Of a DNA stretch of 64,000 nt, positions 326 to 31,800 are shown piece after piece. The notes under the pieces are model-generated. The model searched no databases. It was not told where the DNA came from and saw only the letters and a list, made by a program, of their open reading frames with translations. The translations under genes and the position numbers were made by a program. Origin of the DNA: Marsupella aquatica (taxonomy: Eukaryota; Plantae; Marchantiophyta); contig OZ316897.1 of the NCBI GenBank assembly GCA_973895155.1, positions 16,119,375 through 16,183,374 of the forward strand, given 5' to 3'. Position 1 is the stretch's first letter, and each line of letters starts with the position of its first letter.

Positions 326-1243
326 ATGCTTTCTCAGGAGTCGATTCTGGTTCTCGGCGCCGGCGAATTAGGCACAGCAGTGCTTCGCGGCCTCGCCCTA
401 CATCGCGAGCGCGGCTCCGTCAAGCTGTCGGTGCTTCTGAGGCCCGCCACAATCAACAGCAGCCAGGCGGAGAAACGCGCTCAAATCACTTCCCTCCAAA
501 GTCTCGGCATCGCAGTCGTGGCAGGGGATGTGATGACAGACTCGGTTCCAGAGCTCGTGGCTCTGTTCAAGCCCTTCACCACCATCATAAGCTGTTCTGG
601 TATGACCTTCGAATCAGGAACTCAGCTCAAATTGGCGCATGCAGTGCTCGATGCAGGGGTGCGAAGATACATCCCGTGGCAATTCGGCGCCGACTATGCT
701 ATCATCGGCCGCAATAGCTCGCAGGACCTTTTCACTGAGCAATTGGACGTCAGAGACCTGCTGCGAGCCCAAACGGAAACGACTTGGATCATTGTATCGA
801 CAGGGATGTTCATGAGCATTCTGTTCGAGGATTTCTTCGGAATTGTGAACGCCGAGCGGACGATTGTGCGTGCTCTGGGGTCCTGGGACAATCTGGTGAC
901 TGTCACTTCACCAGAAGACATTGGGAAGCTGACTGCGGAGGTCGTTCTGGCGGCACCCGAGGTCGAAAACGAAATTGTTTTCATAGCTGGAGACACAGTT
1001 TCGTATGCTCAGATTGCAACGATTGTAGAACAGGTGCGAGGGAAGCCGATCGAGCGAGTGCTGTGGGATCTGAGCACCCTTCGAAAGGATCTGATGGAGA
1101 GTCCGAGCGACAGTTTGAAGAAATACAGGATCGTGTTCGCAGAAGGAAAAGGAGTGTCGTGGAATCGGGAACAAACTTTCAATTGGAAGAGAGGTCTAAA
1201 GACAACTTCTCTGGAGCAGTGGGCAAGAGACAATTTGAAATGA
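326..1243 (+). CDS. NmrA-like / isoflavone-reductase-like NAD(P)-dependent reductase, intronless, microbial type
   Basis: ATG at 326 (MLSQESILVLGAGELG, a Rossmann GxGxxG motif). Also VRRYIPWQFGADY, GRNSSQDLFTEQLDVRDLLRAQ, WIIVSTGMF and EDIGKLTAEV, typical of the atypical-SDR NmrA family. Single exon of about 305 aa. Confidence 0.85.
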   Translation: MLSQESILVLGAGELGTAVLRGLALHRERGSVKLSVLLRPATINSSQAEKRAQITSLQSLGIAVVAGDVMTDSVPELVALFKPFTTIISCSGMTFESGTQLKLAHAVLDAGVRRYIPWQFGADYAIIGRNSSQDLFTEQLDVRDLLRAQTETTWIIVSTGMFMSILFEDFFGIVNAERTIVRALGSWDNLVTVTSPEDIGKLTAEVVLAAPEVENEIVFIAGDTVSYAQIATIVEQVRGKPIERVLWDLSTLRKDLMESPSDSLKKYRIVFAEGKGVSWNREQTFNWKRGLKTTSLEQWARDNLK

Positions 1244-2899: not shown

Positions 2900-3117
2900 A
2901 TCCTCTCTCCCATCCCAGATGAAGTTTAGAGGTTAAGGTTTATCGTCATAACCCCTAAAACCTATACTTTCATCTCTAAATGGGATGGGATCTGATGCCC
3001 ACCAAGGAGAACTGTTGCGTGCTTGAGATTGTAAGGTTTATCCATCCTTTCCCATTAGAGGCAAAGTTTAGGGATTTGCATTTATCATCCATAAACCTTA
3101 AACTATGGGATGAGATC
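2900..3117 (+). repeat. Host dispersed repeat (TTATCATCCATAAACCCTAAA...GGGATGGGATCTGATGCC...GGAGAACTGTTGCGTGCTTGA), left part, interrupted by the retroelement
   Basis: An intact unit lies at 2925-3030. The interrupted unit continues at 12981 (GATCTAATGCC...GGAGAACTCTTGCATGCTTGAAATTG). More copies occur at about 13380-13440 and 13855-14145. Confidence 0.7.
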
Positions 3118-3447
3118 TGTCACACCATTCTGAGTAGTGTAGTAGTATATCGTGCTATTAGAGTATGTACGTTTGGTATGAGTGCTATTGGAGCCGATAA
3201 GGTTCTGTCATGTTTGTGTGAGAGGGTACTTCTCACTTGTGAGGCATTGAAAGGTCATCTTTCAATGTTGAGCCTTGGAGAGAGAGGAGCTTGAGTGTGG
3301 CTATGGTGGCTGTGAGCTCCGCTTGTGTAACGTGGATTCCTTGAGTAGTGCAAGGTGCGTTGGCTTGACATACGTGTGTGATCGGATCGGTGCGGGATCG
3401 ATGGGGTATTGTTGACCGAGATCGTTGTGCCGATTGTATGGAGATTA
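3118..3447 (+). repeat. Split direct repeat A1 (330 bp)
   Basis: Matches 12514-12843 with 3 substitutions seen by eye. Confidence 0.95.
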
Positions 3448-3458
3448 CATTGAAAGAT
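3448..3458 (+). promoter_or_regulatory. Putative self-priming primer-binding site (CATTGAAAGAT)
   Basis: Begins on the first base after repeat A1. It is the exact reverse complement of ATCTTTCAATG at 3257-3267 inside A. No tRNA-type TGG PBS is present at the boundary. Confidence 0.65.
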
Positions 3459-3717
3459 CACATTCAAAATCTGTTGTACGGACTGTGCGGACAGAAGTTC
3501 GATTGATTGAGTTGTCGACGGTTCGTGGTAGCTCGGATCGTGTGTTGTTATCGAACAGATTGTTGGTATCTTGACCTGTATCGTTGTTGTCCGATCGGCC
3601 TGCTTCCCGATCGATGTACAGATCTGTGATTGGTGACAGGTTTTGAGTTGGAGGTCGATTGATGATTCATGGAGGAAAGCGAATGTTGAGTAGATGTTGG
3701 ACAGTGGAAGTCGATCC

Positions 3718-4290
3718 GTGAGGCTTCAGATCCGATTGCCAGCTACTGTGAGGCTTCAGATTTGATTGTCGGCTACTGTGGGGCTTCAGATCTGATTGCC
3801 GGCTATTGTTGGACGATGTTGGCAAGGCGCAGGTGAAGCGACGGCTTTTTTCCTGAAGGAACGGAGCTGCCAATGCCCCGTGCGACGGTATCATCGTTTC
3901 AGTGAAAGAAACGAGGGTCAAGGGTGTTGAATCAAGTTGCTGCCAATTCTGTGGAAGGGCTGCGTTTTTCATGAAGAAAATCGACAATTTTCGGGAGCTT
4001 TCTGTGAAGAAAGTACTCGTTTTTGGGGTTAGGTGTGAGGCGCACGAGGTCACCCATCCCGAAAGTGCTCGCGCGAGGCAACGCGTGAGGTCACCCATCC
4101 CGAAAGTGCTCCCAACCGCGAGCGAGAAGTCACCCATCGCAAGCGCAGGCAGGCACGAGGTCGAGGTCACCCATCCCGGGGCTATTCCGGGCCGTGAGCG
4201 CGAGGGGAGGCACAAGGTCGAGCGCGAGGAGGTCACCCATCCCGGGGCTATTCCCAGCCGCGAGCGCTTAACTGGCAAGTTCTCATCCCA
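3718..4290 (+). repeat. Tandem and clustered repeats in the retroelement 5' leader
   Basis: A 30-bp unit GTGAGGCTTCAGATCCGATTGCCAGCTACT occurs 3 times (3718-3807). GAGGTCACCCATCC-like motifs occur 5-6 times (about 4046-4290). Confidence 0.8.
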
Positions 4291-4801
4291 CCTTGTGTAC
4301 ACACAAGCTTTGACAACTTGTTGTTTAGATTCAAGCGCCAGTGGGCTTTATACACTTCTCGGTTTGTTTAGAGGCCTATTCTAGGCCAAATCAGAGGCTG
4401 TTTGAGGGTTTTTGATACTTCTGAGTCCATCTAGACTCACAGATTGAACTAATTTTGCCTTGGTTCTCATCTACAACATTGGAGTGCCATTGTGAAGCCT
4501 ATTATGAAGGCTCTTCCTTGAACCTTATGCACATTGTCATATTGATTTGCATTTGCTTTTGTGTGGAGAGTTGAATGGTATCCATTCTTGTTTCTGGATC
4601 CTCTTCACACATGTTTCCTGTTTATGCGCCATGTTAGTTTCGTGTGGGCGCTTGATTCCATAGGAGTGATCCGGGTTTGCAACTGGACATTCTAGTGTGC
4701 TGTGTATTTCTCTCTTGGTGATGTTGGAGTGATGCCCAACACACCATGGTGAGTGCTTGTGGTGCTGATAGGGATAGATTGCCCTTAGGGTTAGCACATA
4801 G

Positions 4802-7300
4802 ATTAGGTTAAAGTTGGTCACCACGGATTCTTCTGGTGCTGCTGGATTACCCGATGGACGACGGACCGGTTTCACTCGGAGTGGGGCACAGTTTCGGCCA
4901 GCGGCATTGTTAGCAATCAGTAGTGCAGCTTCAGACAATGATTCTGATGAGGACTCAGTGACCAGTTCTCCTCATCATCAGGTGGTTGCACCTTTGTTGT
5001 GGGATATGGACGAGATGTACGGGGCTACAAAGGGCCCACGACGATACTCTGGTGCAGTTGGCACAATTGATCTGGATGACTTCATCCAGGAGTTTGATAC
5101 GTGGTGCGATATGTAGACATTGCGTAATGTCACATTGTTTACCCCTTTCATGGCATGGAAGGGATTATTCCAGCATTTGGAGGGGCCACCCATGGATGAC
5201 TACCATGAGTTTCGGAAGGCTCATTTGGTTGAGATTGAGGCATGGAGGCAGCATTGGTCGCCTAATTACGTGTCCATCACCTATGGCACTAGTGCGGCTA
5301 CCCAACCAATTGCCACAACTGCTGCTTCTTCTAGCAGCACTAGCCAGAGTGGCACACCATCCACCAGCAGCACTCCAGCAGCATCCACCACTACTCCTGC
5401 CGGTGTGATTGTGACAGGAACTGGAGTTGCGCCAGCATTTAATCCTGTGGTGGAATTCTTTGAGGTACTGAAGCAGAACTATCAGGGTGTGAGAACTGAT
5501 AAGTTGAAGGGTCTTCAGGAGTTCCAACGCAAGACTGGAGAGAGCCTACGTGAGGCATACACACGTATGCGCAGATTGATCACTGTCACCAAGGGAGTGA
5601 CAGAGGCTCAGGCAGTCCAATTTTGGTATGCAATTCTGGACAGAGAATTGCGACGCAGAGTGAGAGATGTCACTCTGCTTAGGGATGCAGATCCCACATT
5701 AGCAGTTGTTTTCACCCTTTCTGAGCGCATTGAGCTCAATATGGTGAATGAGAAGGTGGTGACTTTCGGATTTGCCAAGGAAGCACCAAAGGCTGCATCT
5801 ACATCCACACCACAGCCTACTGCACGGAAGAGCCAGAGGGAGAAGCCTACTGCACGAGAGTCTACCAGCCAGAGACCTGTGCCCTCTTATGCTGGACAGC
5901 AGTCAGGATGTTGGACCTGTGGTGGGGATCATGCACAGAGATATTGTCCAGATCATAGAGGATCAGGGGGAGCATCAGCGCCTGATCAGCGACAGTGTGA
6001 TCACTGTGGAGCTCCTGGACACACCAAGGATAGGTGTTTCTCACTCCACCCTGAGTTACGGAGAGGAGGATCCCATACACATGATCAGGGAAGAGGAGGA
6101 GGAGGTAGAGGTGGTGGACGTGGTCGTGGCATGCCACATGCAGGGAGACAGGGAGGTGACGCTGCCCCTGCTGTAACCATAGATCCAAAGGATGCTAAGA
6201 TTGCTCAATTGGAGCAACAACTAGCTGTCATGGCTAGTTCCCAGGTGAGACCTAATTTTGGTGATGGGGCATCTACATCCTATGGACCTTCCACATCCCA
6301 TGGTCCTTCCACATCTTATGGAGCTGATGGAGACCTTGCCACCATGGGATTCATGTGTGGCACTGCACATATTGATGCATCAGCAGCTTTGACACGTGGG
6401 GCAGCCAAAGCTCTTGAGCCCCGAGGAGCAGTAGTGGAGTTAGATCCACAAAGGGGGGATGCACGTCGGCAGACAAAGCTTCCTCAGTCTTTTACATTGT
6501 CAGAGACAGTTCAGACTGCCTCTATGAACCCGGTTCGGACAAACCCTGATGTGGGTAAGTTGGCAGAATCAGGTAGTGATGCAGCAGGGATGATAGGTAC
6601 CTTGCTGGGGGCGGCTACTGCCATAGTACGCACTCCATTATTTTCAGCGACAAACATGCTGAACTTGGGAGTTGGTCCTCCAGAAGTGTTCAGATTGGCA
6701 GCTACACTCTGTGAGGACACTCCAGTGGTTGCTTCCCATGCAGAAGCAACTTGCAGTGTTGATGCAGTGAAGACCATGCCACCTACTGCTACTAGTGAGA
6801 CATGGCATGCAGCAGCAGCGAGGTTGGTGGATTTACCAGCACGCCCTGCATTTGAGAGGACTAGGTTTAAACCTAGTGTTGTGTCATTGGATAATCGGAG
6901 TGGTATCTTCCGATTAGTTGGGCCTTCTGGAGCAGTATACCAGCCAGAGAGAGTGTTACTGGATACTGGTGCTCAGCCCTTGATGTTGGGGAAGTCTGCC
7001 ATACGTGGATTGGGATTGCGTCCAGAGGATTTGGAGGATTGTCCCTTTCCCATTCAGACTTCATTGGGGGGACCTACACCTACACAGCATATCACCAGGA
7101 GACCACTTGATTTGAGGATTCAGGAAGGTCATACCACAGATAGATCACAGATACAGGCGCGAGCTATTCTGACTAAGGCAGAGTCATATGATGTGTTGGT
7201 GGGATGTACAGTGCTCTACCCCATGGGATTTATTCTTGATTTTTGGGAGGAATCAGTGTCATATAGACCTGATTGGCAGTCAAGAGATGCTCGATTTAGC
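4802..7300 (+). pseudogene. Retroelement Gag (two zinc knuckles) and aspartic protease
   Basis: ORFs 4814-5116 and 5120-8251 are in the same frame, separated by a TAG at 5114-5116. Knuckles are CWTCGGDHAQRYC (about 5909) and CDHCGAPGHTKDRC (about 5996), followed by an RGG-rich linker. Protease motif VLLDTGAQ at about 6953-6976. Confidence 0.85.
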
Positions 7301-7668
7301 AAATTGCCAGTGAGATTTAGTGGACCTATGGGAGGCCCTAAATCCACACCATTATCTTTGGCAGCATTCAGTGGTGTAATTGCTGGACCTGATGATTTGA
7401 TTGAGGGTAATGCGCATGCAGCCGATGTTCCACCATTGGAGGAGTCTCATGAGGAGCACATCATGCGAGGATTACCTGTTGGCAATGTTATGCCACCAGT
7501 GTGGGGCATTGCACAAGCCTTGCCACAGGCAGCAGCACGATTGGTACATGATGCATGGCGTCATGCTTTTACACCACAGTCAGGAGCAGAGCAGTCTCTT
7601 GCAGATGGACCTGTGACTCTTTCACCATTGGATACCACTCCTATTGCTTGGCAGTATCCACCGGAGGG

Positions 7669-8570
7669 TATTTGTTTGTTGGATCTTTTTGGTGGGATTA
7701 GCACTGGATTGGCTGCTGTTCTTCAGGCAGGAATTCCTATGCGTCGTTATTTGTATGTGGAGACAGATGAGACAACACGGAGGGTCTCATTGCGACATGT
7801 GGCTATGTTGGTGGATAGATATCCACAGTTGCTGCCAGTGGATGCTGTTCGTGGTTATCAGCATGCACTACCTACTGATATTTCATTGTTGGGGGCGGAT
7901 CATCTACATCGTGTTGGCCCCATTGATTTGGTGATTGCTGGTTGGCCATGTCAGGGCCAATCTAGAGCTGGCATTGGGCATGGACTTCATGATCCACGCT
8001 CTGCATTGTTTTGGGAGATGTTACGGGTGCTGCGTCACCTCCAGCTACATCAGACACAGTCTCCAGCATACATTTTGGAGAATGTGCCATTGTTAGGTGA
8101 TGATCGTAGTCGGATTGTTGCCAGTGTTCACCAGGTGAGGTCTTGGATTGGACCTGCTGTGTTATTGGATGCTGCACGTGTGGGTTCTCGTGCACATCGT
8201 CCACGCTTATGGTGGACTAATTCCGCGCTCACCAGCCTTAGTGGTGGATGATATTTTGGATCCAGGGCGTCGTGCACAGGGTGTGACCCAACCTGATAGA
8301 CCTCCATTGGCAATGGTCAATGCAGTTGGGTGCCCACGTTGTGCATTACCCACTCTTGTAAGCCACTCTGCTTCATATGCATTCAGAGCAGGTGGCCCTG
8401 GACTTGTATGGACACAGCTCTCCAGCAGTTAGTGGAGCCTACTGCTGATGAGAGAGAGCGTGCTATGGGATTTTTGACTGGCACCACTGCAGTTGTCTCT
8501 GTGTCAGAGGGTTTGCGGCGCCAGGTTCTTGGTCAAGCAATGGATTTGAATTGTTTGACTTGGATTATCA
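7669..8570 (+). pseudogene. C5 cytosine DNA methyltransferase domain embedded in the retroelement polyprotein (two frameshifts)
   Basis: Motif I LLDLFGGIS, motif II YLYVETD, catalytic motif IV IAGWPCQG (about 7934-7957), motif VI YILENV (about 8069-8086) and motif VIII AHRPRLWW. After frameshifts at about 8225 and 8412 come motif IX ERERAMGF and motif X RRQVLGQAM. Confidence 0.9.
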
Positions 8571-9384
8571 GCTTGGGAGTAGCTGAACAGTTGCGGATGC
8601 GCTCTGCCGGAATTACTGATTGTCCCTTGGTGAGCTTGCGGTCCACTAAGACAGTATTGACCACAGCTGGGGGCGAGCAGACAGTCCATGGACCTATGAC
8701 AGGATTGGCGGCTGGACAGATTGTTGAGCAGGAAGGGACTGCTCAATCTACTACTAAATAGCAATCATCGGCTATCTCTTCTACCCTACAAAGAGATATT
8801 AGGGATTTGGTGGAGAGTTGGGAACCACAGCTTGGCCCTAAGTTAACAGGGGAGGAGAGACGTCGTATGCATCGATTCCTGAAGAGTTATTGGAATTGTT
8901 TTGCATTCAGCATGAAGGATTTGGGGACATTGAAGGGCCCTGGTATTCAGATTGAATTGGCTAGTGATGCGCCAATCTTTCGTAGACCATACCGTTATAG
9001 TGACATGGAGAGAGCTCTGATTCAAAGCAGAACTCAAGATTTGTTGGAGGCTGGATTGGTGGAGATTTCATATGGGGAGTATGCATCTGCCACAGTGATG
9101 CCAGCCAAGAAAGATGTGCATGGCAATTACACAGATAGGCGCATGTGTGGTGATTACAGACCTATTAATCGCCAGACAAAATCTGATCGATATGCCATGC
9201 CCACACCTGAGGAGATCTTTGATGCTGTGGGGCATGCAAAGGTTTTCAGTTCATTGGATCTGAGGGCAGGATACCATCAGCTTCCAATTAGGCATGCTGA
9301 CAGGTCCAAGACAGTTCTGGGGGATTGATTCTTATGGCAAAGATCGTTTGTATCAATGGTTATTCTTACCATTTGGGTTGAAGA

Positions 9385-9690
9385 CCCGGGGTCCTCACTT
9401 CTTTTCTTCCGACCCATCACGCGCGAATAAGTATAGGGTTTTTTTATTGGGTTTAATGAAATACTTTTAAATTTTTGTTGAAGAACATTAGTGTTATTTT
9501 AATCCAATTTTGAGAATTATAAGAATCATAGGGTTTTTTAAAATCAAATATGGGAACATTCTTGGAATATTCTATTAAGTTAGGGGTTAAAAAATTCCTA
9601 AAAAAAACTTTATTGACTTAACTTTTAGGGTGTTTATTCTCCCAAAACTTCGAGCGTGATATGGGACACCCCTTGGATTGAGGCCCCCGA
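9385..9690. mobile_element. Non-autonomous DNA transposon (MITE-like, 306 bp) inserted into the RT domain
   Basis: 9-bp TSD GGTTGAAGA at 9376-9384 and 9691-9699. Imperfect TIRs CCGGGGTCCTCA / TGAGGCCCCCGA flank an AT-rich core. Removing it restores PFGLKNAP. Confidence 0.85.
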
Positions 9691-12059
9691 GGTTGAAGAA
9701 TGCACCAGCTGAGTTCCAGAGAGTCATGGATCGAATCCTTGTAGGTTTGGATTTTGTCAGATGTTATATTGATGATATTTTGGTCTATTCTTCTACTGTG
9801 GAAGAACATCAGCAGCACTTGCAGACTGTGTTGGAGAGATTGAGAGCACATGGGTTGAAGCTCCATCCTAGCAAGTGTAAGTTCTTCCAAGACCAGATTG
9901 AGTATTTGGGCCACACCATATACCCAGGGGGATTGGGTGTACAGCAGACTAAAGTGGAGGTCATTACACAGATTCCTTGTCCTACTGATGTGAGTAGAGT
10001 TCGTGCATTCTTGGGATTGGCGAGCTACTACAGGAGGTATGTTAAAGGATTTAGCCAGCTTGCTAAACCTTTGACCATACTCACTAAGTTGGATCAGGAA
10101 TGGATTTCGGGTGATGACCAGGAGCATGCCTTTCAGGAGTTGAAGCAAAGGTTGGCATCATCCCCTATTTTGAGAAGACCCATTTCAGGCAGACCATTTC
10201 AGCTACACACTGATTGGAGTGGAGTAGGACTTGGAGCAGTGCTGACTCAGAAGGATGATGAGGGGAATGAGTTTGTTGTGGCTTATGCCAGTAGATCAAA
10301 CAATTCAGCAGAGGCTAAGTATAGCTCTTATGAGGGAGAGTGTTTGGCAGCAGTGTGGGCTGTTGCACACTTTCGTTGCTACTTGTTTGGTAACCCCTTC
10401 ACCTTGATCACTGATCATCAGCCTCTTAAGTGGTTAATGGAGTCTGACAAGCTTACAGGGAAGCTTGCACGATGGGCATTGTTGTTACAGGAGTATGATT
10501 TCCAGGTGGTGCATAGGCCTGGAAAAGTGAACTTGGATGCAGATGGATTAAGCCGCAATCCATGTACCAGTCAGCAGGATGAGACTGGAGCCAGATGGCA
10601 TGATGAGTCAGATAAGGAGATGGTGCCAGGATGGCATGCATCTGCCTTTCTTTGTTGGGTGCCAGCATACAGTGGATCTGTGGACTCTACTTCATTGGAT
10701 GGAGTGGGTGATGAGTCTTCAGATGTGGATGTTGGTGAGGTAACTTCTGGACAACAAGATATTCACAATGATGTGAGAGTGTTGGAATATCTGCGCAATA
10801 GTTCTATTGTTGGCAGTGTTGATGCCAAGGACCGTGACAGGGTTCTACAGAGAGCCAAGAGGTTTCGATGGGAGGGAAACCATCTTTTGAGAGTACTGCA
10901 TGATGGTAGGATGTTGGTGGTACCAAAACCATCACAACGAGTACATTTGGTGCGACATGCGCACGAGGAGTTGGGTCACTTTGGTGTGAAGCGCACTTAC
11001 AGCTTGCTGCAGATGTAGTATTGGTGGCGTGGTATGCACACTCATGTCCAGCAGTTGATAGCTAAGTGTGTGGTATGTGACAGAGTGAGAGCATCATTTA
11101 ATGCTCCCACTCCCCAGTTGCACCCGTTACCGATCATGGGTTTGGGATATCGTTGGAGTTTGGATTTTGCTGGTCCATTACCTCTTACCCAACGTCATAA
11201 TCGGTATGTTTTGGTCATGGTGGAGCACTTCTCCAAGTGGATTGAGCTAGTGGCGTTGCCAGATAAAGCCAGTGGAGGAGTTGCTGCTACATTTTTGGAT
11301 TGTGTACTCAGTCATTTTGGAGCACCAACTGAGGTGTTGACTGATCAGGGAACTGAGTTCCGTGGAGAGTTTGAGAGTTTGTGTGAACAAGCTCTGATTG
11401 ATCATCGCACTACCTCTCGTGATCATCCTGAGGCAGATGGATTAGCTGAGAGAGTTGTGCAAACTGTGAAGAGAGGATTGCGTAAGTATGGCTTGCAGGT
11501 TGGTCATCTGGGAGATTGGGATCTCCAGCTACCTTGGTTAGCTATGGGCTACCATTTCAGTCGGCAAGCATCACTTGCATCCTTCTCACCCTACTTTTTG
11601 CTCTATGGTAGAGAGCCAGATTTGCCAGCAGCTATTCGTCGTCATGCTGCACCAGTTGTGAACTTGGATGATCCTGATGTTTGGGTCAAGGTGTGTTCAG
11701 AGAGAGCACGGGTATTTCAGAGAGTGATGCCCATGGCTTTTGACAACCTTGCCATTGCCCAACATCGTGATACTTTGAGGTATGCCACTATTCGTGGAGG
11801 AGGTTACCGTGCAAGCATTCGACGATTTCATCCTGGTGATTATGTTTATTTGCAGCAGACAGCACCCACGACACTTGATGTGACCGCAGGCCGGACAATC
11901 TTACGTGTGCGTGAAGTGTTGCCTTCTGGTGTCCTGATGTTGGAGGGACGCGATGGTATGGTTTGGAAGGATCATGTGCGCAACTGTGCACCATGTCACC
12001 TTCCTAACATTGATGGTACAGTAGATCCAAGCTTGGCACATGTTCGTGCTGGCTTGAAA

Positions 12060-12197
12060 TGTATGTTGTGTGGATCTGCTCAGGGAGCAGCTACTATGTT
12101 GATTTGTGATAAGTGTTCTAGAGGATGGCACATGTCATGTTTGACACCACCATTGCAGGTGATTCCTAGTGGATCATGGTTGTGTCCTCAGTGTCGG
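12060..12197 (+). other. PHD finger (C4HC3) fused to the integrase C-terminus
   Basis: CMLC...MLICDKC...WHMSCL.PPL..IP.G.WLCPQC is a canonical PHD pattern. Confidence 0.9.
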
Positions 12198-12364
12198 TGA
12201 AGCCGACTAGTTATCATTTGTGTTCTCTTGGCAGATATGGATTGCAGGTAGGTGATCGATGGGGCTCACTTGCACCCGGCCTCCTGATCTTCACACCTAA
12301 AAAGGTGTATATCAACCTTGTAGAACTCATGGCTAGCTAGAGTTAGGGGACCTTACTCCCAGCT

Positions 12365-12374
12365 AGGGGGGCGA
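12365..12374 (+). promoter_or_regulatory. Putative polypurine tract (plus-strand primer)
   Basis: AGGGGGGCGA directly abuts the first base of repeat B1 (12375). Confidence 0.6.
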
Positions 12375-12980
12375 TTGTGGGTTTTGGACATGTGTGGACA
12401 TGAGTTCCACTTGTATTCCATTCTCTTGTATTTGTGATGTGGCAGTGTGACTATGTCTGGATGTATGTGACAAGCGATGTATGTTGTGTAGCGATATGTA
12501 TGCGCACGACAACTGTCACACCATTCTGAGTAGTGTAGTAGTATATCGTGCTATTAGAGTATGTATGTTTGGTATGAGTGCTATTGGAGCCGATAAGGTT
12601 CTGTCAGGTTTGTGTGAGAGGGTACTTCTCACTTGTGAGGCATTGAAAGGTCATCTTTCAATGTTGAGCCTTGGAGAGAGAGGAGCTTGAGTGTGGCTAT
12701 GGTGGCTGTGAGCTCCGCTTGTGTAACATGGATTCCTTGAGTAGTGCAAGGTGCGTTGGCTTGACATACGTGTGTGATCGGATCGGTGCGGGATCGATGG
12801 GGTATTGTTGACCGAGATCGTTGTGCCGATTGTATGGAGATTATTGTGGGTTTTGGACATGTGTGGACATGAGTTCCACTTGTATTCCATTCTCTTGTAT
12901 TTGTGATGTGGCAGTGTGACTATGTCTGGATGTATGTGACAAATGATGTATGTTGTGTAGCGATATGTATGCGCACGACA
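12375..12980 (+). repeat. Right-end repeat block B1 (12375-12511), AC, A2 (12514-12843), B2 (12844-12980)
   Basis: B1 and B2 are 137 bp each with 2 differences, and A2 matches A1. The B1/A2 junction reads GACA-AC-TGTC. Confidence 0.95.
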
Positions 12981-14569
12981 GATCTAATGCCAACCCTTTG
13001 AGGAGAACTCTTGCATGCTTGAAATTGCACTGTTTGTGCATCCGAAAACCCCTCCTAAAATTTGTTTGCTTGTTTGTATGTACATGGTCATGAGTCATTA
13101 CCCCGTGATGAAGCCACAAAACCCATATGCCAGCCTGGCCTAGGGATTCTGAAATTTGAATGAAAAATACACTAAGGTGCAAGTGGCACACAATGGCAGA
13201 TGAGACTTTTGCCCTATAAAACTGAAGTGAATCGTACAAAAGTGCACTCAGACTTTACACTTGGTAACTCATCTCCACTTGGGGATAATGGCTAAACCCC
13301 CTTTGGTTCAGCACCCTTTGGGATTACATCCCATTATCCCCTCTTGGGATGGGTCCTACACTTTGCCATTAGGGACGATGTCTAGGGTTTGGCTTTATCA
13401 TCCATAAACCCTAAAATCATGGGATGGGGTCTGAGAGCCAACTCACATGTGTGGGTCCTCAGAAATGGCCCTTACCTGCAGCAAAATATTAGGGGAAAAG
13501 TAAATCTTGGATCACAAATGGACCTTCTCAAGTGCAACATGGCATGTGCTCAAGCAGTTTGTGTTCCTCATTGTCCCCTACAAGCAGAGGTAATAAAGCC
13601 ACAGCAAAGCTTCCAGTGCCACACTTTTGCAACATGTCACTTTCTCCCTTTTGTTTGACAAGAAAGTTTGAGGTCAGTTTGAGGTCGGCACCTCAAGGGT
13701 CATAAGATTTCCGGCCCTTGCCCGTGGAAGTGCCAGTTTTATGGCATCAGGCCTGGCACACAAGGGGGTAACAGCATATTTCTCAGTCATTTGTATGCTG
13801 CCATCAGTCAGGTTTATGGCCGATGACATACAAGTTGGCTCTGATCACCTTTGGAGGAAAACTGTTACGTGCTTGAAATTGCTGGGTTTACTCATCCTTT
13901 CCCATTGGAAAGGGTTAAGGATTAGGGTTTATCATCCAGAAACCCTAAAACCTGTGTTCCATCTCAGAATCCATTGGGATCGGATGCCAATGTTCGAGGA
14001 CGACTGTTGCGTGCTTGAAATTGTGATAGATTTGAAGAGTGATGACGAGAAGTTCAGGATAATGTATATCGATCAGGGCACTACGTTCTGGGATGAAATC
14101 GGATGTCAACCTTCCAGGAGGACAGCTGCTTGCTTGAAATTGTGGCAGATTGTCCTCCCAACCGAACAGAAAAGAAAAGATGAAGTTGGTCACGAGGAGT
14201 GCGCGAAACTGTTTACGAAGGTGTGAAGAACTGCTGGCCAGACTCCGATTTATCACTCCCAGCAAATGTTAAAAATTCATTCCCACCCACTGGAGACATT
14301 GTACATTTGGATTACGTACATGCCATGACAATGAAATAGAATCCGTGCCGTCAGGAAGTAAAATTGTTCACAACCATCAGAATCGGGCCAAAGCTTTGGC
14401 AACAAGAATTAATAGGATCTCCAGCGTTTACATCCACGGTGGACAAAATCTACATTACATTGGAAAGGGGTTTGCAAGTACAAGGGCAAAGGTGCTCCAA
14501 GCTCTCATCTCTCCTAAGGAGCATCTGCAGATAAGATCGTCATTGCATCCTAGTCGAGTACGTTGTCCA

Positions 14570-17500
14570 CTACAAGACGTGAACTGCAGCCTTTAAGGAC
14601 TCAAATTGTTGTGGAGTAATAGGGATAAACATGCCTTGCTGTAGTAAGCACCCCTGTAAGAGGGAACCCGTATTAGTCTGCTCTTGTTGCTGACCAATTA
14701 GGCGGTTTGGGATCACCCCAGACGCATTTACAACACCTTCCTCATCTACCTCCATAGGGCTGTCACCTTCAAAATGCACATGGCGGCCTACTTTCTGGAT
14801 TTTCTTTCCCCTTGTTCTATCCACCTGCTCATCAGTAGTCCTTTTCCCCACCACCGGCTCCACCATACCACCAGTCGCCAAATCGGTCTTGTCCACTGGC
14901 TCTCTTGCAGCGGTTGTGCTAGCAGAAGTTTCTCTACTACCCTCTGCTGTTATGGGGACACCACGTTCAGTTCCATGCACATGATTATAAAAATCCAGAG
15001 ATGGTAATATCCCGAGCGAATGACATGGGGAAGGTATCATGCCAATGGCACACGGTCTCCAGTTCTCAACCACAGTCCACCTTTGAATTTCAGAGCCCTC
15101 TTGTCTCAGTGCAACACTGGGGGTGAGCATTGAATTGTGGTTGAATCTTAGGGGACTGCCGGCAGTCTGCTCCTCATTGCGTAACCCATCTCTGGTACTT
15201 TGTACAACGTGCTTTTGAGAAGCGAGCCTGGCGAAAAAAGCCTTCTGTTGTCGCCTGGCGACCCCAAATGCCGGCTCCATGGTTGATTCCGACCCAAGGC
15301 TTGAATCATCTCTGTCTGCAGGACTAGATGCAATCAAGCTATCAACGGACCCCTCCTGGAACCTCTCCTCTCTTACGCTGTTTACACTAGCCACTTGGTT
15401 TTCAGACGTATCCATGACATTCCTATGAAGTCTTCGCATGCTAGTGCCAAGTTGGGCAAGGGTAGCTACGCGATGTTGATATCTTTCATTCCCCAACTGT
15501 ACAGCGATCAGTGTTACAAGGCCAACTAGCGGTTCCTGTCCATTCGATGTAGATAGACAGAGTCTTAAGAGATCAGCTAGAATCTCCTTACTAAGATTTG
15601 GCTTTACAAAAAGCGAGTTTGATATTTTCAGGAGTTTTGACTTTCGAGGGTCGTTCTCAGTCGAGTCCTCGCTGGCCTGAACAAACCTCTTACCGAGAAG
15701 CCAAGAACACCAGGTTATTAACCGATTCCTTTGCAAAGAATCCGTTGAGCCGGGATCTGTCAACTCATCGATATTGAGGTCTGGTGCCTGAGAACTAGTT
15801 GGTCCTTTCCCCTCAAGCCTCCGCAATTTCCCACTTCGTGGACAGCTTTTATTGATGTGCTTTACAATGGCAACTAATAACATTTCCGGTAATCTAGGCA
15901 GGTGAGACGAAAGTTCCCTTAGGGTTAATTTCCATGCACTGTCCATAGCAGATGCCAGGTCAGTACCATCCGTTGAACCTGTTGCTCTAACGGACTGTTT
16001 GGACTGAACTTCATCCTCGATAGGCAGTGAGTCTTGCTCCAACAGTCCATCATCGACTAGTGTGGAAACCAGATTCAACATTGAAGATAGCGACAGATCC
16101 AACAGCTCCTTGAAGAGTGCTTTCCTTAGCTGCCTCTTGACTGCATGAACAATGATACTCAATAACTCAGCTCTTTCGCCAACCAAGGAAAGAATCAAAC
16201 CCCCACGGATCCTGATATTTCATGTCAAATCTTTTTTCAAGACTGCAGTCTGGGAAATGGCCGAGCAAATGCAACCCATTCATAAACCACAAAGCTGGAC
16301 AGGAAAAGATCGAAATGCTCGAGAAAAATGGTCAACCCACCTCTCAAACTTTCCTGAGGGAATACTTCAGGGAGCTCTTCCACCTTGCTTTCTGACTCCT
16401 GCTCCTCTTCGGACTGCTGCGAATTAGTAGCTATGGGGCTTGGATTCAAAATGTCAACCACAAGGAGGCAGTGCTCCACAAGCTTGGACTTCAGCTCCAG
16501 CCTGACATTGACCAATGTTTCCTTCTGCTGGTCCCAGTACTGCAATTTCAACCATGCCAGTGCCTGCATTCCATTCCAGGATGCATTTAAAAAATCCAGG
16601 ACTCAGTAAGCTCATGCTAAGTTGAATTTTATTTCACTAAGGTTGGTTTAAACAAACCCAACCGTCCGTCTCAATCACTTATGAGTCGGACACGTTCCTA
16701 TATTTTCAAATTTTTCGTTCAGAAGCAAAATTATTGGACCACTACAATCTCACTACTTACAACCGAACACTTGTTATGACGCTGAAGGGTCCGGCAAGTC
16801 AGGGATTCCATTGTTGCTTCATATTCTTGTCGGAGATGAAACTGACTGAACAATAAGACCTGTTCTAAAATCCAAAAACCGGAACTACGACAAGTCCCTT
16901 TTCTGACCAAGAAACACCCTACGCCGGTGTCTCTCTTACGGTAATAATCGTTTCCATGTAAAGAGGCAAGAAAAAACATCAGACATGAAGCCGATCATTT
17001 GAGACTTATCGCGAATCTCCCCTCAATAGTGAAACAAGGAAATGAAACTCACATCCACACCCGCGCAGTACTAGGGTTATAATCTTGCATCCCAGCATAT
17101 GCACACTCAATTGCCGAAGCTTTAGTGAGCAACTCGAAGGATGCTTAGTCTCACGAAAAGTTAGACTTTGCCTCATGACGAATCAGGTTTCCACGGAAAT
17201 CCTTCGACTCCCGCACACTGAAAGGGGTACGGCTTTGTATCCTTGACATAAAAAAGCGTCGCCTATGCTTTACTGGTTGAACTGACAGGATGCCTGACGT
17301 CAGAAAAGTCAACTTCTATTTCAAATCACGATTTTTCACTGAACATATTATCGAATTGGTTGTCGTCTTCAGTACACAATGTCCCCTCAATGTGAAGCAA
17401 GGAATGCAACGTTGGTACATTCCCGCGCAGAAAGAGGGCTCACTTGTTGCATCTCATCAATAAGCACACTACATTGCGTAAAGCCCTAGTGAGCAACAAA

Positions 17501-20250: not shown

Positions 20251-21039
20251 GGGCAGCTTTGGTTTTTGTAAGATACAAGTAGTGCCAAATACTAAACTAT
20301 AATACAAGGTTGAGCCAATTTTTAGAGTGGTCGTCATTCAAATTTGTAGGGCACAAAAAATAAGAAAGCTGGTACAAGGAAGGAATAAAGACAGAAGAAA
20401 TTTAATTTAGTGCAGATAAAAAGGGTCACACCAATGTCTAAAGAGTGTCTAACTAGGAGGGAATCAAATGGGATAAGCAAACCAAAAGAGTAAGTCACTA
20501 ACACAATGCACAAGGATCAATGAGTATCATCTCTCCATGATCCATGACAGGGAGTATTGTACATGCTCAATAAGGTGTACATACTCAGACAGAGACTATT
20601 GTACATACTTAATAACATGTACATACTCAATAACACAATGCACAAGGAGTATCCTCTCTCCATGATCCATGAGAGAGAGTATTGTACATACTCAATAAGG
20701 TCTATATAATTATGTGAGATAATGCATAGTTCCATGTAATATTGGTAGGATTTGAATTTCACATACTATTTAAGTCAATAGGGGACTACATACACTAATC
20801 AAATAAAACATATTCTCCCAATATTTAGGGTGCCACTTTCACTGAAAAAACAAAAGTTATAAGGTCCAAAGACATAGTAAAGATCATGGCATGGCACTGG
20901 CATTGATGGCAAGGTGTTGGGCAAGGGGCACACTTTACTTGACGACCTTTTTTACTTCATAATCTCTTTCACATAAGGACCCATTTGGCACCACATCATC
21001 TTTTTACTTGATAGCATCATTTATTCATGACATCTTTCA

Positions 21040-21740
21040 CATAACATTTGATATCTTTGGCAAAACTACTTCTTTTTTGTTAATGACAATTTTTTACTTG
21101 ACGACAATTGTTTACTTGATGACAACTTTTTAATTGACGACATGTTTGGCAAAATGATTTCTTTTTTCTTAAACAACATAGTTTTACTTGACAACGTCTT
21201 TCACATAACTTTATCTTTGCAAAATAACTTCATTGTTCTTAATGACATCTTTTTACTTCACGACATCTTTCACATAACGACATCTTGGGCGACACGACAT
21301 CTTTTGTTCAATGCACGGGTATTGAACTATTTTGTATTTAACAACATTGTTATACTTAACAAAACCTTTGGCATAGCGACATCATTGGCAATACGACCTC
21401 TATTTCTTTCACAACCTCTTGGCCGAGATGACATCTTTTGTTCTCAACGACTTCTTGGCCGACACGACATCTTTTGTTCTCATCGACATCTTGGCCAACA
21501 TGACATCTTTTGTTCTCAACAACATCTTGAGCGACACAACACCTTTCTTCTCAACGACCTCTTGGCGACACGACATTTTTTGTTCTCAACAACCTCTTGG
21601 CTGACATGACATCTTTTGTTCTCAACCCTGTTCTCAACGACATCTTAGGCAACACATCTTTCTTCTCAACGACCTCTTGGCCAACACAACCTCTTTTGTT
21701 CTCAACGACATCTTGACCAACACGACATCTTTTGTGCAAC
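21040..21740. repeat. Degenerate tandem minisatellite (about 33-bp unit CTTGGCCGACACGACATCTTTTGTTCTCAACGA)
   Basis: About 10 recognisable units at 21410-21735, with more decayed TTTTACTTGACGAC units upstream. Confidence 0.8.
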
Positions 21741-24700
21741 GCACGGGTATTGAGCTCGTCTTAATATATAATCTTGATCTATAGCTACTGTACACTTCAG
21801 GCCCTACAATATGGAGTGAAACTTTTAGACCTTGACTCTGGGGGAGGGGGCAGGTGAGTCCCTAAAAATGGCACAACAACATTGAATGTTGTAGTCCCTT
21901 TTATGGTAAAAAAAGAGCACATAGGTTAGTTCTTACCCAAGATTTGAGCTCAAACTGTACAAAGTACAAAAGAATTGAGTCTGAGATTTTTGGGACCAGT
22001 TTGGCCACCTTCACTACTCCTTGAGGGTGGCTTTACAAGATCTAGGGCACTTTGTGAATAGTTTTCACCACTTTGTGTTCAAGGATAGACTCCAGGCTAA
22101 ATATCTTTTGAAATGAAGTTCAATGAATGCCAAACACCTTGAATCAAAAACAAAAAAAACAAAAAAAACAAAAAACAAAAGTCGGAGCCAAAGTTTGGAA
22201 ATATTTGGAGCTGCTATAATGGTGAATGCACATTTCAGATTTTGTCTTATTCAGATTTTTGTGTCATGTATTTTCATTTCAATCTGCCTTAACAAGGGGT
22301 AGCCTTTGTATTCTATACATTTTTAATTAATTTTTAGACCCCTTTAGTTTTAGGTATTCTAGAGTGTTTTGAACTTATTTTGGCAGCCCCCTTTCACAGT
22401 ATGTGTTTTCTTAGAGATGAAACCAAAGGCTCCACCACCACGAGTGAGAGAAATGATGCTGGAGAACATGAATACATAGCCTCTTAAGTTCTCCTCATGT
22501 TTTTCTTTCCTAGGTTTATGGTTTTTATTGAAAGGAGTGTCATTCATAAGGCACCCTGAGTTAAGTACACACATCTAGCATGGTTTGACTGTACCTTTTC
22601 TTGGTCACTGTGCTTTTCTTGGCAGACACTTTACTTATATAACAGCACTTCTATGCTCTCATATTTTATTTATTTTCAGATCACTACAAGACAAAAAAAA
22701 TAAAGCATGTTCCAGGATGAGCATGCTATATCTGGAGGTGACAAATTCTAGTCAAAACAAGCACTTCACAAAGAAGTTTCCTTTGGCCCACTACTTGCCA
22801 TGTAGAATCAGCAGACATCATACCTGAATGGGCCCCAAGGTTTTGTGAAGCCAAAATGCAGCTGTTTTCACTTATCATATGGTCCAGATTTGATCTCAAA
22901 TGGAATAAACAAAGCAATGGTCCTCAACTATCTTGTAAAGCCATCAGAAACCCAGGTCACCACATCCAACAATACTTTGTAAATCTCGGATGTAATGATG
23001 TGGATGAGATGAGTTTAGGGCACCTCTGATCTCCACTACAGCTCTCAATGGCATACCTACCCTACTTGGTTCCAAACTTGAAACAAACACTCAGTTAATG
23101 CCTTCAAACCAAAACAACGGAGAAGTGTCTTCTCTCAATTTCTAGGAATGAAGAAAGGAAGAAATCCTTGTTGGTGGTGCCTAAGCTGTTGAAGGAAAAC
23201 CCTAGGCAGGCTTGGAGGTGGTTGACCGCCTCCTCTCAACTTCCATGAAGAAAGGAAGAAATGTGGACAAGTGGTTGCCCAAGATGTTGAAAGAAAACCC
23301 TAAACAGGCTGTATTCTATTAGCCTCAAATTGGTCTACCCACAAATCTTCGAAGAAAACATCAGAGGTAATCTTCAGTTGGCCGTTTGTCATCGAGGGCA
23401 GCCCTCAAGTTTTGGAGTTGAGATTGGATGGCCAGCCCCATCATACATTCTCAAGCCATGACAGAGTAAGGTCACATTTGTGGGCTAATGGCATATGGCC
23501 CCAACCAAGCTCAGAGGTGGGTGCCCAACATGCTGGGGCGTTAATTTAGTGCACTAGCCCCGACTACACGTTCTTTGAACGTGAATAGCGGGGAGGACAA
23601 TAAAAATTTCACCAAAATATATTCCTTATTCACATATTTTGAAGGTTAATGAAATGATAAAAAAGTTATCATGCATATCATCATTTTAATAATCAGACAT
23701 AACATATCATAGTACTCTTTTCTATGCACATTCCTAGTTTTTCTATCCTACATCCCACTTATGCACATATAATATGGTGGGCCATAGAGATCAGTTTTTA
23801 ATATAAATAGAAATCATAACAAAAAGCACTCATGATTATCATTTGACATGACATACATCATAGACATCAATTTTCTCATCATTCCACATGAGCCATGGAG
23901 TTATTGTCTAGAGATTTCACTCTAGAAGCGTAGGCCCCAACTTTAGCTTGTAGTTGCAGATTTATAAGTAAGATAACTAACAATTTATGCACATTTTGGG
24001 TACAATGTGCGATCCTATCCAAACATAAATAAACATATTATCCAATAATATTGAGCAAAAGTTTTTTACGGACCCCACTAGAGGTCCCTTCCAAAATTCC
24101 TGGCACCACAGCGTGTCACGTCAACAACAACCGCAACAAACAGGAACGAATTGGTCTCCACAATGAAAATATGCCCAAATTCGTGTTTGCGACAGGATTT
24201 TGGTAAAACTGGGGACGCCATGCCGTAAAAATTCATGTAAACTTGTTTTACAATTAACCATATTATTTACCTTTAGATAACAAATTATTGAAGTTAAGAT
24301 AGACAATAACTGTTTTTTCAACCCCTAAATAACTGAATGCACAACATTAAGTAATAACAATAACCATTAAGTAATAATTAAAAAGAGAAAAGTAACAAAA
24401 TTAAATGTGTAATTGAAAGTAAGCACTTGTCACTAGAAACAGTTAAGTAATTAACGTCCACTACAATCCATCCCGCCCGCAATCCAAACTGTAACGAGCG
24501 CTCCTCCGCGCCACAACCTCTACACGAATTCTCGTTGTTGATTATGATGGTGATGGTGAGGTGAATGTGTGCACACGCAATGTTGAGAGAAACGAGAAGG
24601 TGAGAAAGAAGCTGCCCGATCGAAGACTCGATAACAAAGAAACCAGAAAAGAGATCATTTCATAAGGGACCAAAAGCAGGAAAAACAACGATCGCAAACA

Positions 24701-28847: not shown

Positions 28848-31800
28848 CACTGCTCACCGCCATTAGTCTTATGTCACAAATAGTGTTATACTCAATTAAT
28901 GTTAGTAAGTCTAAATCAAGTGAAGGGGTGTTTTGACAAGAAAATAAGAGTAATTGTGGATCTTTTGTAACTGTAAATAGTATTTGTGATTTACACTAGG
29001 TTATGGTAAAAGTGGGCAGGTGCAGTTGACATGTCAGTCTGAAAGCTTGCTGACAACAACGTGGACCAATAAAGCCACATGCATTGGACAACTAGTGTGA
29101 TGGTTGCATGCATCACTAGCTCTCTACGTAATATTTTTCTTGGATTTTCCTCACTATACTGTAGTAAGATTCTACTCACAACATAAAATCTCATTGACTT
29201 TTGTTTGAGGCCATGCAAAAACGGGGCAAAGTTTTGAGTCGCTCCAAATTGTACAGTAGCTCTCTATCCTGACAATGAATTTTCTGTTGTAAAGCTTTGT
29301 CGTGACAAGTCCACATCGGCAACATTTGATTGCAATCCCCTTTGAGAACGCCTGAATTTTCTCAAAATTACAAATCTCATTGACTTTATTTGCTACCATG
29401 CAAAAACGGGGCAAAGCTACGGGGGAAATTTGAGCTCACAGTGCTCCGATCATTGATGTGATTCAAACATTGACAGATTGGAATGAATTGTGTGTCAATA
29501 TAAGGGGCTGAAAGATTTATAACTTGCACATTTCAAATCTGGGAGGTTCCCATACGTCTTGCTTGCTGATCAAATTATTGATTATTGCATGCCCCTTTGA
29601 GACTTGTACGTAGCTGAGAATCGAGTTGATCTTTTGATTGATCTGCAAAGACAATAGATAGAGAGTGTGCTTGTGTATTTTCAATGATTCACAGTTGGCT
29701 TGCTATCATCGAATTAGACCATTTCAAACAGCTGAGGCTGTTGTCAAGCTTTCTTGAGTATTTTTTGCATTTGCAAGAAAGAACCGTCTGCAGCTAAGCT
29801 GATCCACGAGGTGAGGTGAGTAGCTTTGGTTTGATTAAAGCTGAATCTTTAGTTTGCTTTCAACTTATTTTCAATCCATTCGATCAATCAAACATTGAGT
29901 TGAAGTGGAACTTGTGTTTGAGCAGCAATTTCTCAATCTTGTGAGCTTGCAGGTCCAGGTGCAGGTCAGGGTGTTCAAGTTAGTTCAAGCTATTGATCAC
30001 AGATAGGCTCGTATGGCTCTCCCCTTTTAAGTGCATGGAGACATGCAAGGCAGCCCTTGCCTCCGGTTCTGTCCACTGAAGAGGCTGAACATGGAACCGA
30101 AGAGCAGCAAGAAGAGTAGCAAGAGCAAGTCAACCAGCAACCACTATCGATTCAGGCTGAAAGATCTCGTACATTACAACATGTCTGCACTAAGGCCCAA
30201 CGAGTGAAGGTCATTAAGTGCAGGCTACAGTTCAATTTAGAGGAGGAGAGGAACGATTGATTGCCACTGATGCAATTAAACAATTTCCAAAGTGTTTTTG
30301 TTCTGCTAGTGCAACTGCAAACATTGTGAAGGCATCACGTTGGTGGAAGGAACGGGAAAGTATTCTGGAATCTTTCAAGGTAGACAAGATGTGTGTGAGC
30401 CGATCATTTCATGATGGGAGGAAACGGACAGAGTTGAAGGCGGGTCCAGGTAGGGGGAGGAAAGCAGCCGCTTGGACTACTTGGTTGTACCCTATCGTGA
30501 GAGATGAGTTTGAAAGATTAAGGTCTGCAGGCCTGAAATTCTCACCCAAGGTACTCCTTCTAGTTGCTAAAAATGCATTAGTGACAAACAATCATCCCAC
30601 TTTCTTTCCGCAAGCTATCTTGGATGATGATCCAAGACCTCTGACAGATAGAATAACCCCCAGGTGGGTCCAGCAATTCCAAGAGCGAAATAACATTGTC
30701 CATCGTTCTCAGACCGGTAAACTTATGGTTTCCCCTGCCAAGCAAGAGTTCATAGAGAGAAGAGTAGCTTTCCACATGGGATTTCTTGCACGTGGTTTTA
30801 GATCTGGAATCTTGGATGAGAATGACCAGGAGAATATGGATGAGACTCACTTTTGTGTCAATATGGACAACGGGAAGACGTTAGGTTTCAGAGGAGACGA
30901 AAATGTGAAATATGCAGATATTGTTAGTGGAGGAGTTGGAATTACCATGGTAGTAAAAGTCACAGGAGGGGTTCAAGGGAAAATTGGGACCCCTTTCATG
31001 ATTTTTCAGAATGATCATTGTTCTTATCCAATTAGGGGAGTTCCTGATAATGTGCCAGGTGTATGCTACCGCTCCACAACATCCTCGTTTATGACTTCAA
31101 AATGTCTGACAGAATATTACAAGGATGGGAGGGTCAATTGGGCAGATCCTAGTGGACATAGGAAAGTCCAATGGATGGATAACTACCCAGGGCACAAAAT
31201 TCTTCCGGATACCGAGACAGCGTTGGAGCACATTAACATGGAGGTGAGAAGATTCCCTGATAATGCTACTCACTTGGTACAACCCTGCGATAGCTTTGTA
31301 ATTTCAAAAATCAAAGATGCCTGGACACGAAGGTGGGAGGTGAAGAAAATGGAGCTGATCAGGGATAGTCAATGGCAGGGTGATGGAAGGCATGGTACAA
31401 GTGGTATGCTCATTAATCCAGGGAAATTTTTTTTCTTGCAATTGGCAGCTGACTCTGTATGTGATGTCAACAGGCAGGTTGACAAACATTACAGAATAAG
31501 TTATGCCAGAAAATCTATGATTAGAACTGGTCTCTCCTTAAATCTCAATGGGCTGTGGGAAGAGGAGCAACTTTCACCAGAATTACAGCAAGTCATTGAG
31601 AAATATCGGTGGAATTTTAACAGAGGGTTGCAAGGTCTGTTAGATATTGATCCACGATTGCCCCTAACAGAAATTCCTTTGAATGTTGGAGAACCCTCAG
31701 CTCAGGAAGACCTTGACAGTGATGAAGTTGATGAGCTTGACAGTGACGAAAATGAGGACTCCCTGCAATTGCCTCACGAACCTGAACCACTGGAGGCGCT

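Follow-up and report, generated by a model that had tools for sequence, protein, structure and literature searches.

A methyltransferase-bearing Ty3/Gypsy element in a liverwort

Why should a retrotransposon in land-plant DNA carry a cytosine methyltransferase between its protease and its reverse transcriptase (RT), and is that domain a working part of the element or a scrap of host coding sequence picked up once? The question arises from a 64-kb stretch of the Marsupella aquatica genome (the window). Pfam searches and repeat comparison show that positions 3118-12980 of the window are a single Ty3/Gypsy element, with the domains Gag, protease, C5 methyltransferase, RT, RNase H, integrase and PHD in that order (Table 1). 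The succession Gag-PR-RT-RH-INT with a DDE integrase is that of Ty3/Gypsy elements, as are the TG...CA ends, the primer-binding site (PBS), the polypurine tract (PPT) and the short target duplication. In place of two complete, identical long terminal repeats (LTRs) around the coding region, however, we found the arrangement A-coding-B-A-B, so that the element functions as a Gypsy element yet is structurally variant.

The window copy is a broken, dead member of a high-copy family. Beyond the stop in gag and the two frame breaks in ORF1, its ORF2 has lost two nucleotides near 9314, carries a 307-bp insertion in RT and has a TAG at 11016-11018 in the integrase. ORF1 aligns with Marchantia protein P0006 over 5006-8677 and with the close database protein P0001 over 6623-8758. 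Summed contig depth over the element was about 2e5 in run X1, against 34 for the flank contig, which shows that copies are many though it gives no copy number. Between the two copies of each repeat the difference is about 1%, so the insertion of this copy is young. The 307-bp insertion is missing from other copies in public runs, and the rise in depth over it in runs X1 and X7 indicates that it is itself repeated; its 8-bp duplication is of a length that we take to be hAT-like.

Table 1. Features of the element and its target site (window coordinates)
Feature	Position	Strand	Remarks
Left target-site duplication, GATC	3114..3117	+	identical 4 bases at 12981-12984
Repeat A1, TG start, right-hand part of permuted LTR	3118..3446	+	differs from A2 at 3 of 330 nt
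Predicted transcript 5' end / self-primer	3257..3268	+	12 nt complementary to PBS, exact match
PBS, self-priming (Tf1-like) type	3447..3458	+	
ORF1: Gag with two Cys/His knuckles, protease, methyltransferase	5006..8761	+	broken by TAG 5114-5116 (in gag) and two frame breaks
Aspartic protease, DTG at 6962	6870..7290	+	PF13650 weak, E 0.0095; motif
DNMT3-type C5 cytosine methyltransferase domain	7670..8590	+	catalytic motifs preserved; C-terminal third frameshifted in window copy
Conserved stop TAG followed by CAA TCA	8759..8767	+	fits CAR YYA readthrough context
ORF2: RT, RNase H, integrase (zinc finger and core), PHD finger	8762..12200	+	Pfam RVT_1, RT_RNaseH, Integrase_H2C2, rve, PHD
MITE-like AT-rich insertion in RT, 307 bp	9385..9691		imperfect terminal inverted repeats and 8-bp duplication
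PHD finger, integrase C-terminus	12057..12194	+	PF00628, E 7.9e-11
PPT immediately before B1	12361..12373	+	same layout at 19/19 listed B starts
Repeat B1, CA end, left-hand part of permuted LTR	12374..12511	+	2 differences in 137 nt from B2
Internal attachment-like site: CA of B, 2-bp spacer 12512-12513, TG of A	12505..12520	+	imperfect palindrome
Repeat A2	12514..12842	+	
Repeat B2	12843..12980	+	A2/B2 joint 12842/12843 is the inferred circle junction
Right target-site duplication, GATC	12981..12984	+	

The PHD finger has as its best solved relatives CHD4, DPF3, ATXR5, KDM5, PHF21A and UHRF1, and all 103 matched PHD fingers lack a Trp at the second residue ahead of the His. Fingers of the CHD4, DPF3, KDM5, PHF21A and UHRF1 kind read unmethylated H3K4. 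Between the PBS and gag, the leader holds a 41-nt GC-rich unit repeated four times (4046-4269); CpG observed/expected is 0.85-0.90 in the leader and A, and so not depleted, unlike the coding part, where it is 0.30-0.47. A nearby DDE transposase, at 0.38, is depleted to a similar degree, so that the depletion does not mark the element out as self-methylating.

The surroundings are mixed. A degenerate host repeat lies on both sides of the element (2926-3119, 13001-13055, 13361-13433 and 13855-14170). An intronless NmrA-like reductase ORF at 326-1243 (+) has a CpG o/e of 0.97 and nearest Atlas clusters that are mostly bacterial; an old gene transfer is possible. A Helitron Rep/helicase ORF of 1123 codons at 35210-38581 (+) is also undepleted (0.97), unlike other elements, and a DDE_1 transposase ORF (30218-31918, +) sits between 169-bp direct repeats at 28403 and 32709. 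Probable host genes are represented by a plant-like Kelch-repeat ORF (49367-49930, -) and a thioredoxin ORF (42239-42574, +); the window further contains a 549-codon ORF with no Pfam match (14570-16219, -) and a degenerate 36-nt tandem array (20949-21771).

The domain is of DNMT3 type by sequence and predicted fold

The ORF at 5117-8251 matches Pfam PF00145 (E 1.6e-10, 41.3 bits, cutoff 22), an assignment confirmed in the ESM Atlas. This bears out the reading of the first-pass annotation, made from the sequence without searches, that the methyltransferase motifs share a frame with Gag and protease: motif I (LDLFGG) lies at about 7679-7696, the Glu of motif II at 7760, the Cys codon of GWPCQ at 7949-7951, ENV at 8078-8086, and RAHRPRLWW runs to 8221. 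Its account of the C-terminal part also held. Relative to P0001, about 13 codons are missing at ~8221 and a second frame change occurs at ~8409, after which the coding sequence runs in frame across a TAG into RT; motifs IX-X are out of frame in this copy, and at each break site additional letters are found in other copies from public runs. Motifs I, IV (PC), VI (ENV), VIII (RxR), IX and X are present in unrearranged order, as in C5 methyltransferases.

The closest solved structures by sequence, whether searched with the relative P0002 or with a 44-sequence profile, are DNMT3A and DNMT3B; profile E values were 4e-27 for these, 2e-17 to 5e-14 for DRM-type enzymes and 9e-9 for M.HhaI. An AlphaFold model of P0002 (pLDDT 91.2) returned DNMT3A/B in all rows listed by Foldseek (best E 3.8e-19; TM 0.81-0.84 of target). 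The PDB ranking and Foldseek agree in placing the domain nearer to DNMT3 than to enzymes of the DRM or DNMT2 type or to those of bacteria and phages, which makes it DNMT3-type as judged from sequence and a predicted fold. A tree of 201 domains sets the element sequences apart from phage enzymes and joins them to the one host DNMT3 available, that of an ant (support 0.79); plant host DNMT3 sequences are not among the taxa. A close viral donor was considered and rejected, as viral contigs gave weak phage methyltransferase matches (59 loci, best E 3e-14).

Catalytic residues are widely kept: among 183 element-type domains, Marchantia rows included, the Cys is present in 173 and the Glu in 179, while one Arg is found in 168 and the other in 170, gaps being scored as misses. 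A Glu stands in place of the Pro before the catalytic Cys in 58 domains out of 175 aligned, a count made without the Marchantia rows.

An element family with algal and bryophyte hosts, and selection on the domain

A domain search returned 70 proteins, the named matches, at 42-78% identity, coming from Marchantia polymorpha, Calypogeia fissa, two Sphagnum species and Closterium, and the full scan gave 269 clusters at 50% identity (E up to 1e-30). It had been proposed in the first pass that methyltransferase retrotransposons of the Klebsormidium kind might extend to land plants, and these bryophyte relatives support it. Other element domains lie on the same strand in 68 of 80 related loci, the remaining 12 being short or without any.

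The domain occurs in two positions. Of 261 domain proteins, 98 have it between RNase H and integrase and 54 end after it, while 24 have it ahead of RT in one record (a class that includes gene models of broken copies), 83 consist of the domain only and 2 are otherwise arranged. The RNase H-domain-integrase position corresponds to an RT clade of its own (support 1.00), to which the chlorophytes Hariotina, Haematococcus and Cymbomonas belong. The window RT, 80% to Calypogeia, falls among loci of Calypogeia, Marchantia and metagenomes (0.97), and Coleochaete branches outside this group (0.97); the wider clade (0.94) takes in Closterium and the Klebsormidium nitens RT P0116, a partial record without the methyltransferase part. 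These are FastTree trees with local supports, midpoint- or phage-rooted, from which cluster members with 335<id<402 were left out. As far as such trees can indicate, the RT phylogeny fits inheritance from algal ancestors. In Tetraselmis P0179, although it comes from a chlorophyte, the domain precedes RT. P0146 combines RT and PHD with a methylase family of the Dam type (PF05869).

The first-pass annotation had named absence of the domain from other copies, or its neutral evolution, as grounds for abandoning the idea. Neither was borne out: the domain is family-wide, and comparing the window with 53 second-family loci we obtained a median dN of 0.25 at dS 1.40 for its N-terminal part. Elsewhere in the element, dN was 0.18 for RT (31 loci), 0.17 for integrase (13), 0.41 for protease (33) and 0.67 for the linker (46). 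Since dS is near saturation, the ratios (0.14-0.20 in close pairs) are approximate; within-family dN/dS (0.36-0.74) was not used because it mirrors the decay of dead copies. The substitution pattern is that of a methyltransferase domain under purifying selection.

A fixed stop codon separates the methyltransferase from RT

The reading frame is kept across the TAG at 8759-8761 into RT, and P0001 terminates at the same codon as ORF1 of the window. Positions 8759-8767 showed no variant at 3% or above in four runs (179, 102, 6 and 19 contigs), seven nearby positions being variable; the listing was made from assembled contigs, in which rare variants are lost. Fifty-five of the 80 loci span the domain and the start of RT, and 47 of these are close relatives. 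A stop followed by CAA is present in 44 of the 47 (TAG in 28, TAA in 16), and the other three comprise two in which a second stop replaces CAR and one that is frameshifted; the loci behind these counts, and behind those of element ends below, are mostly one family and so not independent. Among eight distant loci, seven have no stop, the coding sequence being fused. Stop-bearing and fused lineages occur in the same contigs or collection (L028, L049, L071), and Calypogeia has RTs in both clades.

The context TAG CAA TCA of the window fits the UAG CAR YYA signal of TMV, for which 11-32% readthrough is given in plant reporters (PMC2754532; here and below, papers are cited from parts of their text). 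The largest related family has CAA CCC, agreeing at 5/6 positions of CAR YYA, and then an in-frame ATG two codons past the stop; the window family and L022 have no ATG after the stop and keep CAA YYA. A literature search found nothing on CARYYA readthrough in retrotransposons. Because the TAG is fixed in the family and the CAA conserved, we read the element as two ORFs joined by a likely leaky stop, in which case the methyltransferase would be made at the level of Gag. It lies on the Gag side whether RT is reached by readthrough or by reinitiation. The first-pass reading of the TAG as a lesion in a single ancestral polyprotein is therefore not supported in the form given, although a fused form does exist in the more distant lineage.

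Permuted repeats, self-priming and an internal attachment-like site

The putative self-primer within A1 was matched in none of 2000 shuffles and, at the predicted 5' end, pairs with the PBS in the minimum-free-energy fold of 3257-3480, the total energy of which is no better than that of shuffles (z -0.98). Among 20 5' ends, 15 have within A a stretch of 10-17 nt complementary to the PBS (shuffle p <=0.004); such stretches occur in three families, whose sequences differ, and lie mostly about 140-170 nt into A, with two of the best matches further in.

The permuted arrangement is general. Full A...B-A-B structures were found at five loci (L032, L049, L056, L071, L077) and B-A-B at three (L010, L028, L068), and among these is a family with only about 42-55% protein identity. 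All nine B/A junctions displayed have CA, two bases and TG inside a 7-bp imperfect palindrome. The 4-bp target duplication is exact in seven of nine two-ended elements, with a mismatch in L023 and no match in L077. For each of three unrelated repeat sequences, the end of A coincides with the PBS and the start of B with the PPT, to the base, which means that the A/B joint unites the two ends that PBS and PPT primers would define. Two of ten joints contain remnants: L040 has 10 nt of PBS with 5 of filler, and L032 has 2 nt of PPT with 17 of filler. The converse arrangement A-B-A...B, with an upstream B, was seen at none of 22 5' ends (19 distinct flanks). Ten 3' ends stop after a single B, and could stem from one-LTR circles, double-site cutting, B-B recombination or assembly collapse.

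A model of packaging and circle integration, and its alternatives

These features suggest a replication cycle. Most ribosomes would stop at UAG-CAA, yielding Gag-PR-DNMT, and a minority would read through to make RT-RH-IN-PHD, a step we regard as likely. The RNA very probably begins inside A and primes itself. Ordinary strand transfers would then, with good probability, give a linear cDNA with an LTR of B+A at both ends, and these ends would be joined. The DDE integrase would, as we think fairly likely, cut the palindromic CA-NN-TG in the upstream LTR of the resulting circle; cutting a two-LTR circle there and inserting it gives exactly A...B-A-B with a target duplication. HIV-1 integrase cuts the palindromic 2-LTR junction (PMC1905944). 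A symmetric circle should also yield A-B-A...B, and as none was found among the 22 5' ends the model needs an unexplained bias; nor does the model in itself account for the ten 3' ends with a single B.

Whether the methyltransferase, released by the protease, would mark CG sites of the cDNA or circle, giving the incoming DNA the look of host heterochromatin while the PHD finger steers it to H3K4-unmethylated chromatin, seems to us a balanced question. By analogy with SymbioDIRS-Dnmt3, which methylates CG in yeast, methylation of cDNA or circle by a packaged enzyme stands at about even chances; the KnitGypsy domain gave no methylation in the same kind of assay, a result that its authors call inconclusive (both PMC5890265). 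In its boldest form, which we hold unlikely, the model would have CG methylation in the left half of the site distinguish the two LTRs and set the cut site, and such methylation-directed choice would account for A...B-A-B only. Taken whole, from a DNMT3 at the end of ORF1 through Gag-level packaging, CG-methylated cDNA and a two-LTR circle to insertion, the model is one we favour by a modest amount. The idea of a circle was already present in the first-pass annotation; the repeat anatomy now gives it support that it lacked there.

Other readings compete with parts of this scheme. The repeat order matches that of Ngaro, PAT-like elements and VIPER (PMC6681497), and replication in the manner of tyrosine-recombinase elements, with the whole A...B-A-B carried in the RNA, the A/B joint inherited and B/A templating a new circle junction, would by itself explain why no upstream B is found. 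We nevertheless judge this improbable: it leaves unaccounted for the coincidence of A with the PBS and of B with the PPT in three unrelated repeats and the two joints with primer-site remnants and filler, Pfam reveals no recombinase ORF, and a 4-bp target duplication is present. For the expression of Pol, reinitiation or a separate RNA might replace readthrough, as the ATG past the stop in the largest family and the database Pol proteins of ~1030-1040 aa, recorded apart from ORF1, would suggest; yet the window family and L022 lack that ATG while conserving CAA YYA, and the frame is unbroken over the stop, which leaves this reading unlikely for the element studied here.

Somewhat less unlikely, though still doubtful, is that the element retains the domain to bind DNA, or uses it once inserted to silence sibling copies or the target site, and not to mark cDNA. 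The inactivity of the Klebsormidium domain in yeast and the replacement of Pro by Glu before the Cys in a third of domains (58/175) speak for such a role, and a structural one would suit Gag-level amounts; against it, the Cys, the Glu and both Arg are near-invariant across streptophytes and chlorophytes, as expected of a catalyst. That the domain is a one-off, neutrally evolving host DNMT3 capture could appeal to the break inside it in the window copy, but is scarcely credible given its element context at 68 of 80 loci, its purifying selection and the 269 clusters. Returning to the packaging and circle model, we think it unlikely, though worth stating, that it describes an old green-plant Gypsy lineage defined by circle integration via an LTR-internal site and a capsid-level packaged DNMT3.

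Comparison with known elements

The nearest counterpart is KnitGypsy-Dnmt3 of Klebsormidium nitens (PMC5890265), likewise a Gypsy element with an intronless, unrearranged Dnmt3 domain, DIRS-like A-coding-B-A-B repeats and purifying selection. The hosts here differ in being land plants, and so does the layout: in the window family the domain closes ORF1 before the stop, whereas in KnitGypsy-Dnmt3 it shares the RT ORF, and a domain inside the RT/RNase H ORF was found in the L071 lineage but not in the window family. The parts of PMC5890265 drawn on present that element as acquired in the lineage of K. nitens and take up neither its priming nor an attachment site, a target duplication or a PHD ('PHD' gives 0 matches); three of the supplements name neither Marchantia nor Sphagnum. 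PMC12344493 restates the finding as 'streptophytes and dinoflagellates', and its tree figures may include bryophyte copies.

Repeat order is common to the window element, SymbioDIRS-Dnmt3 and the split-direct-repeat YR elements (Ngaro, PAT-like, VIPER). YR elements encode a tyrosine recombinase, however, and the window element a DDE integrase together with TG/CA ends, a PPT and a 4-bp duplication; Pfam did not find in it the combination of DIRS elements, a tyrosine recombinase without a DDE integrase. Pairing of an 11-12 nt RNA 5' end with the PBS is shared with Tf1/Sushi and the moss Tcn1 clade (PMC7175516, PMC6317226), which differ from the window element in its PHD, methyltransferase and permuted LTR; where Tcn1 has a chromodomain, Pfam gave a PHD and no Chromo match. 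The palindromic CA...TG site resembles the retroviral 2-LTR junction (PMC1905944), which a DDE integrase cuts internally, as the model proposes for the element. The retroviral event is a side reaction at the end-to-end joint, whereas in the window element the LTR itself carries the palindrome from copy to copy, and the joint of the two ends would be kept within the inserted DNA.

Significance

In the openly available papers searched, we found no report of land-plant or chlorophyte members, of the stop or of the circle integration route. A wider range would by itself be a modest result; the fixed stop adds weight to it, as do the permuted LTR and the occurrence in Marchantia. Structure-based searches for LTR elements, of the sort used in PMC6317226, require paired full LTRs and would probably overlook elements like these, and many 'methyltransferase' gene models of Marchantia and Sphagnum are in fact these elements, so that DNMT3 counts are affected. 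If true, a DDE integrase routinely using circles would be an unusual route for LTR elements.

In PMC5890265 the function of retrotransposon DNMTs was left open, and the Gypsy case was taken for an event in Klebsormidium. The family described here is found from chlorophytes and streptophyte algae to liverworts and peat moss, and its domain occupies one of two positions. Methylation mutants exist in Marchantia polymorpha, and the presence of the family in that species makes the question of what these DNMTs do testable in a model plant.
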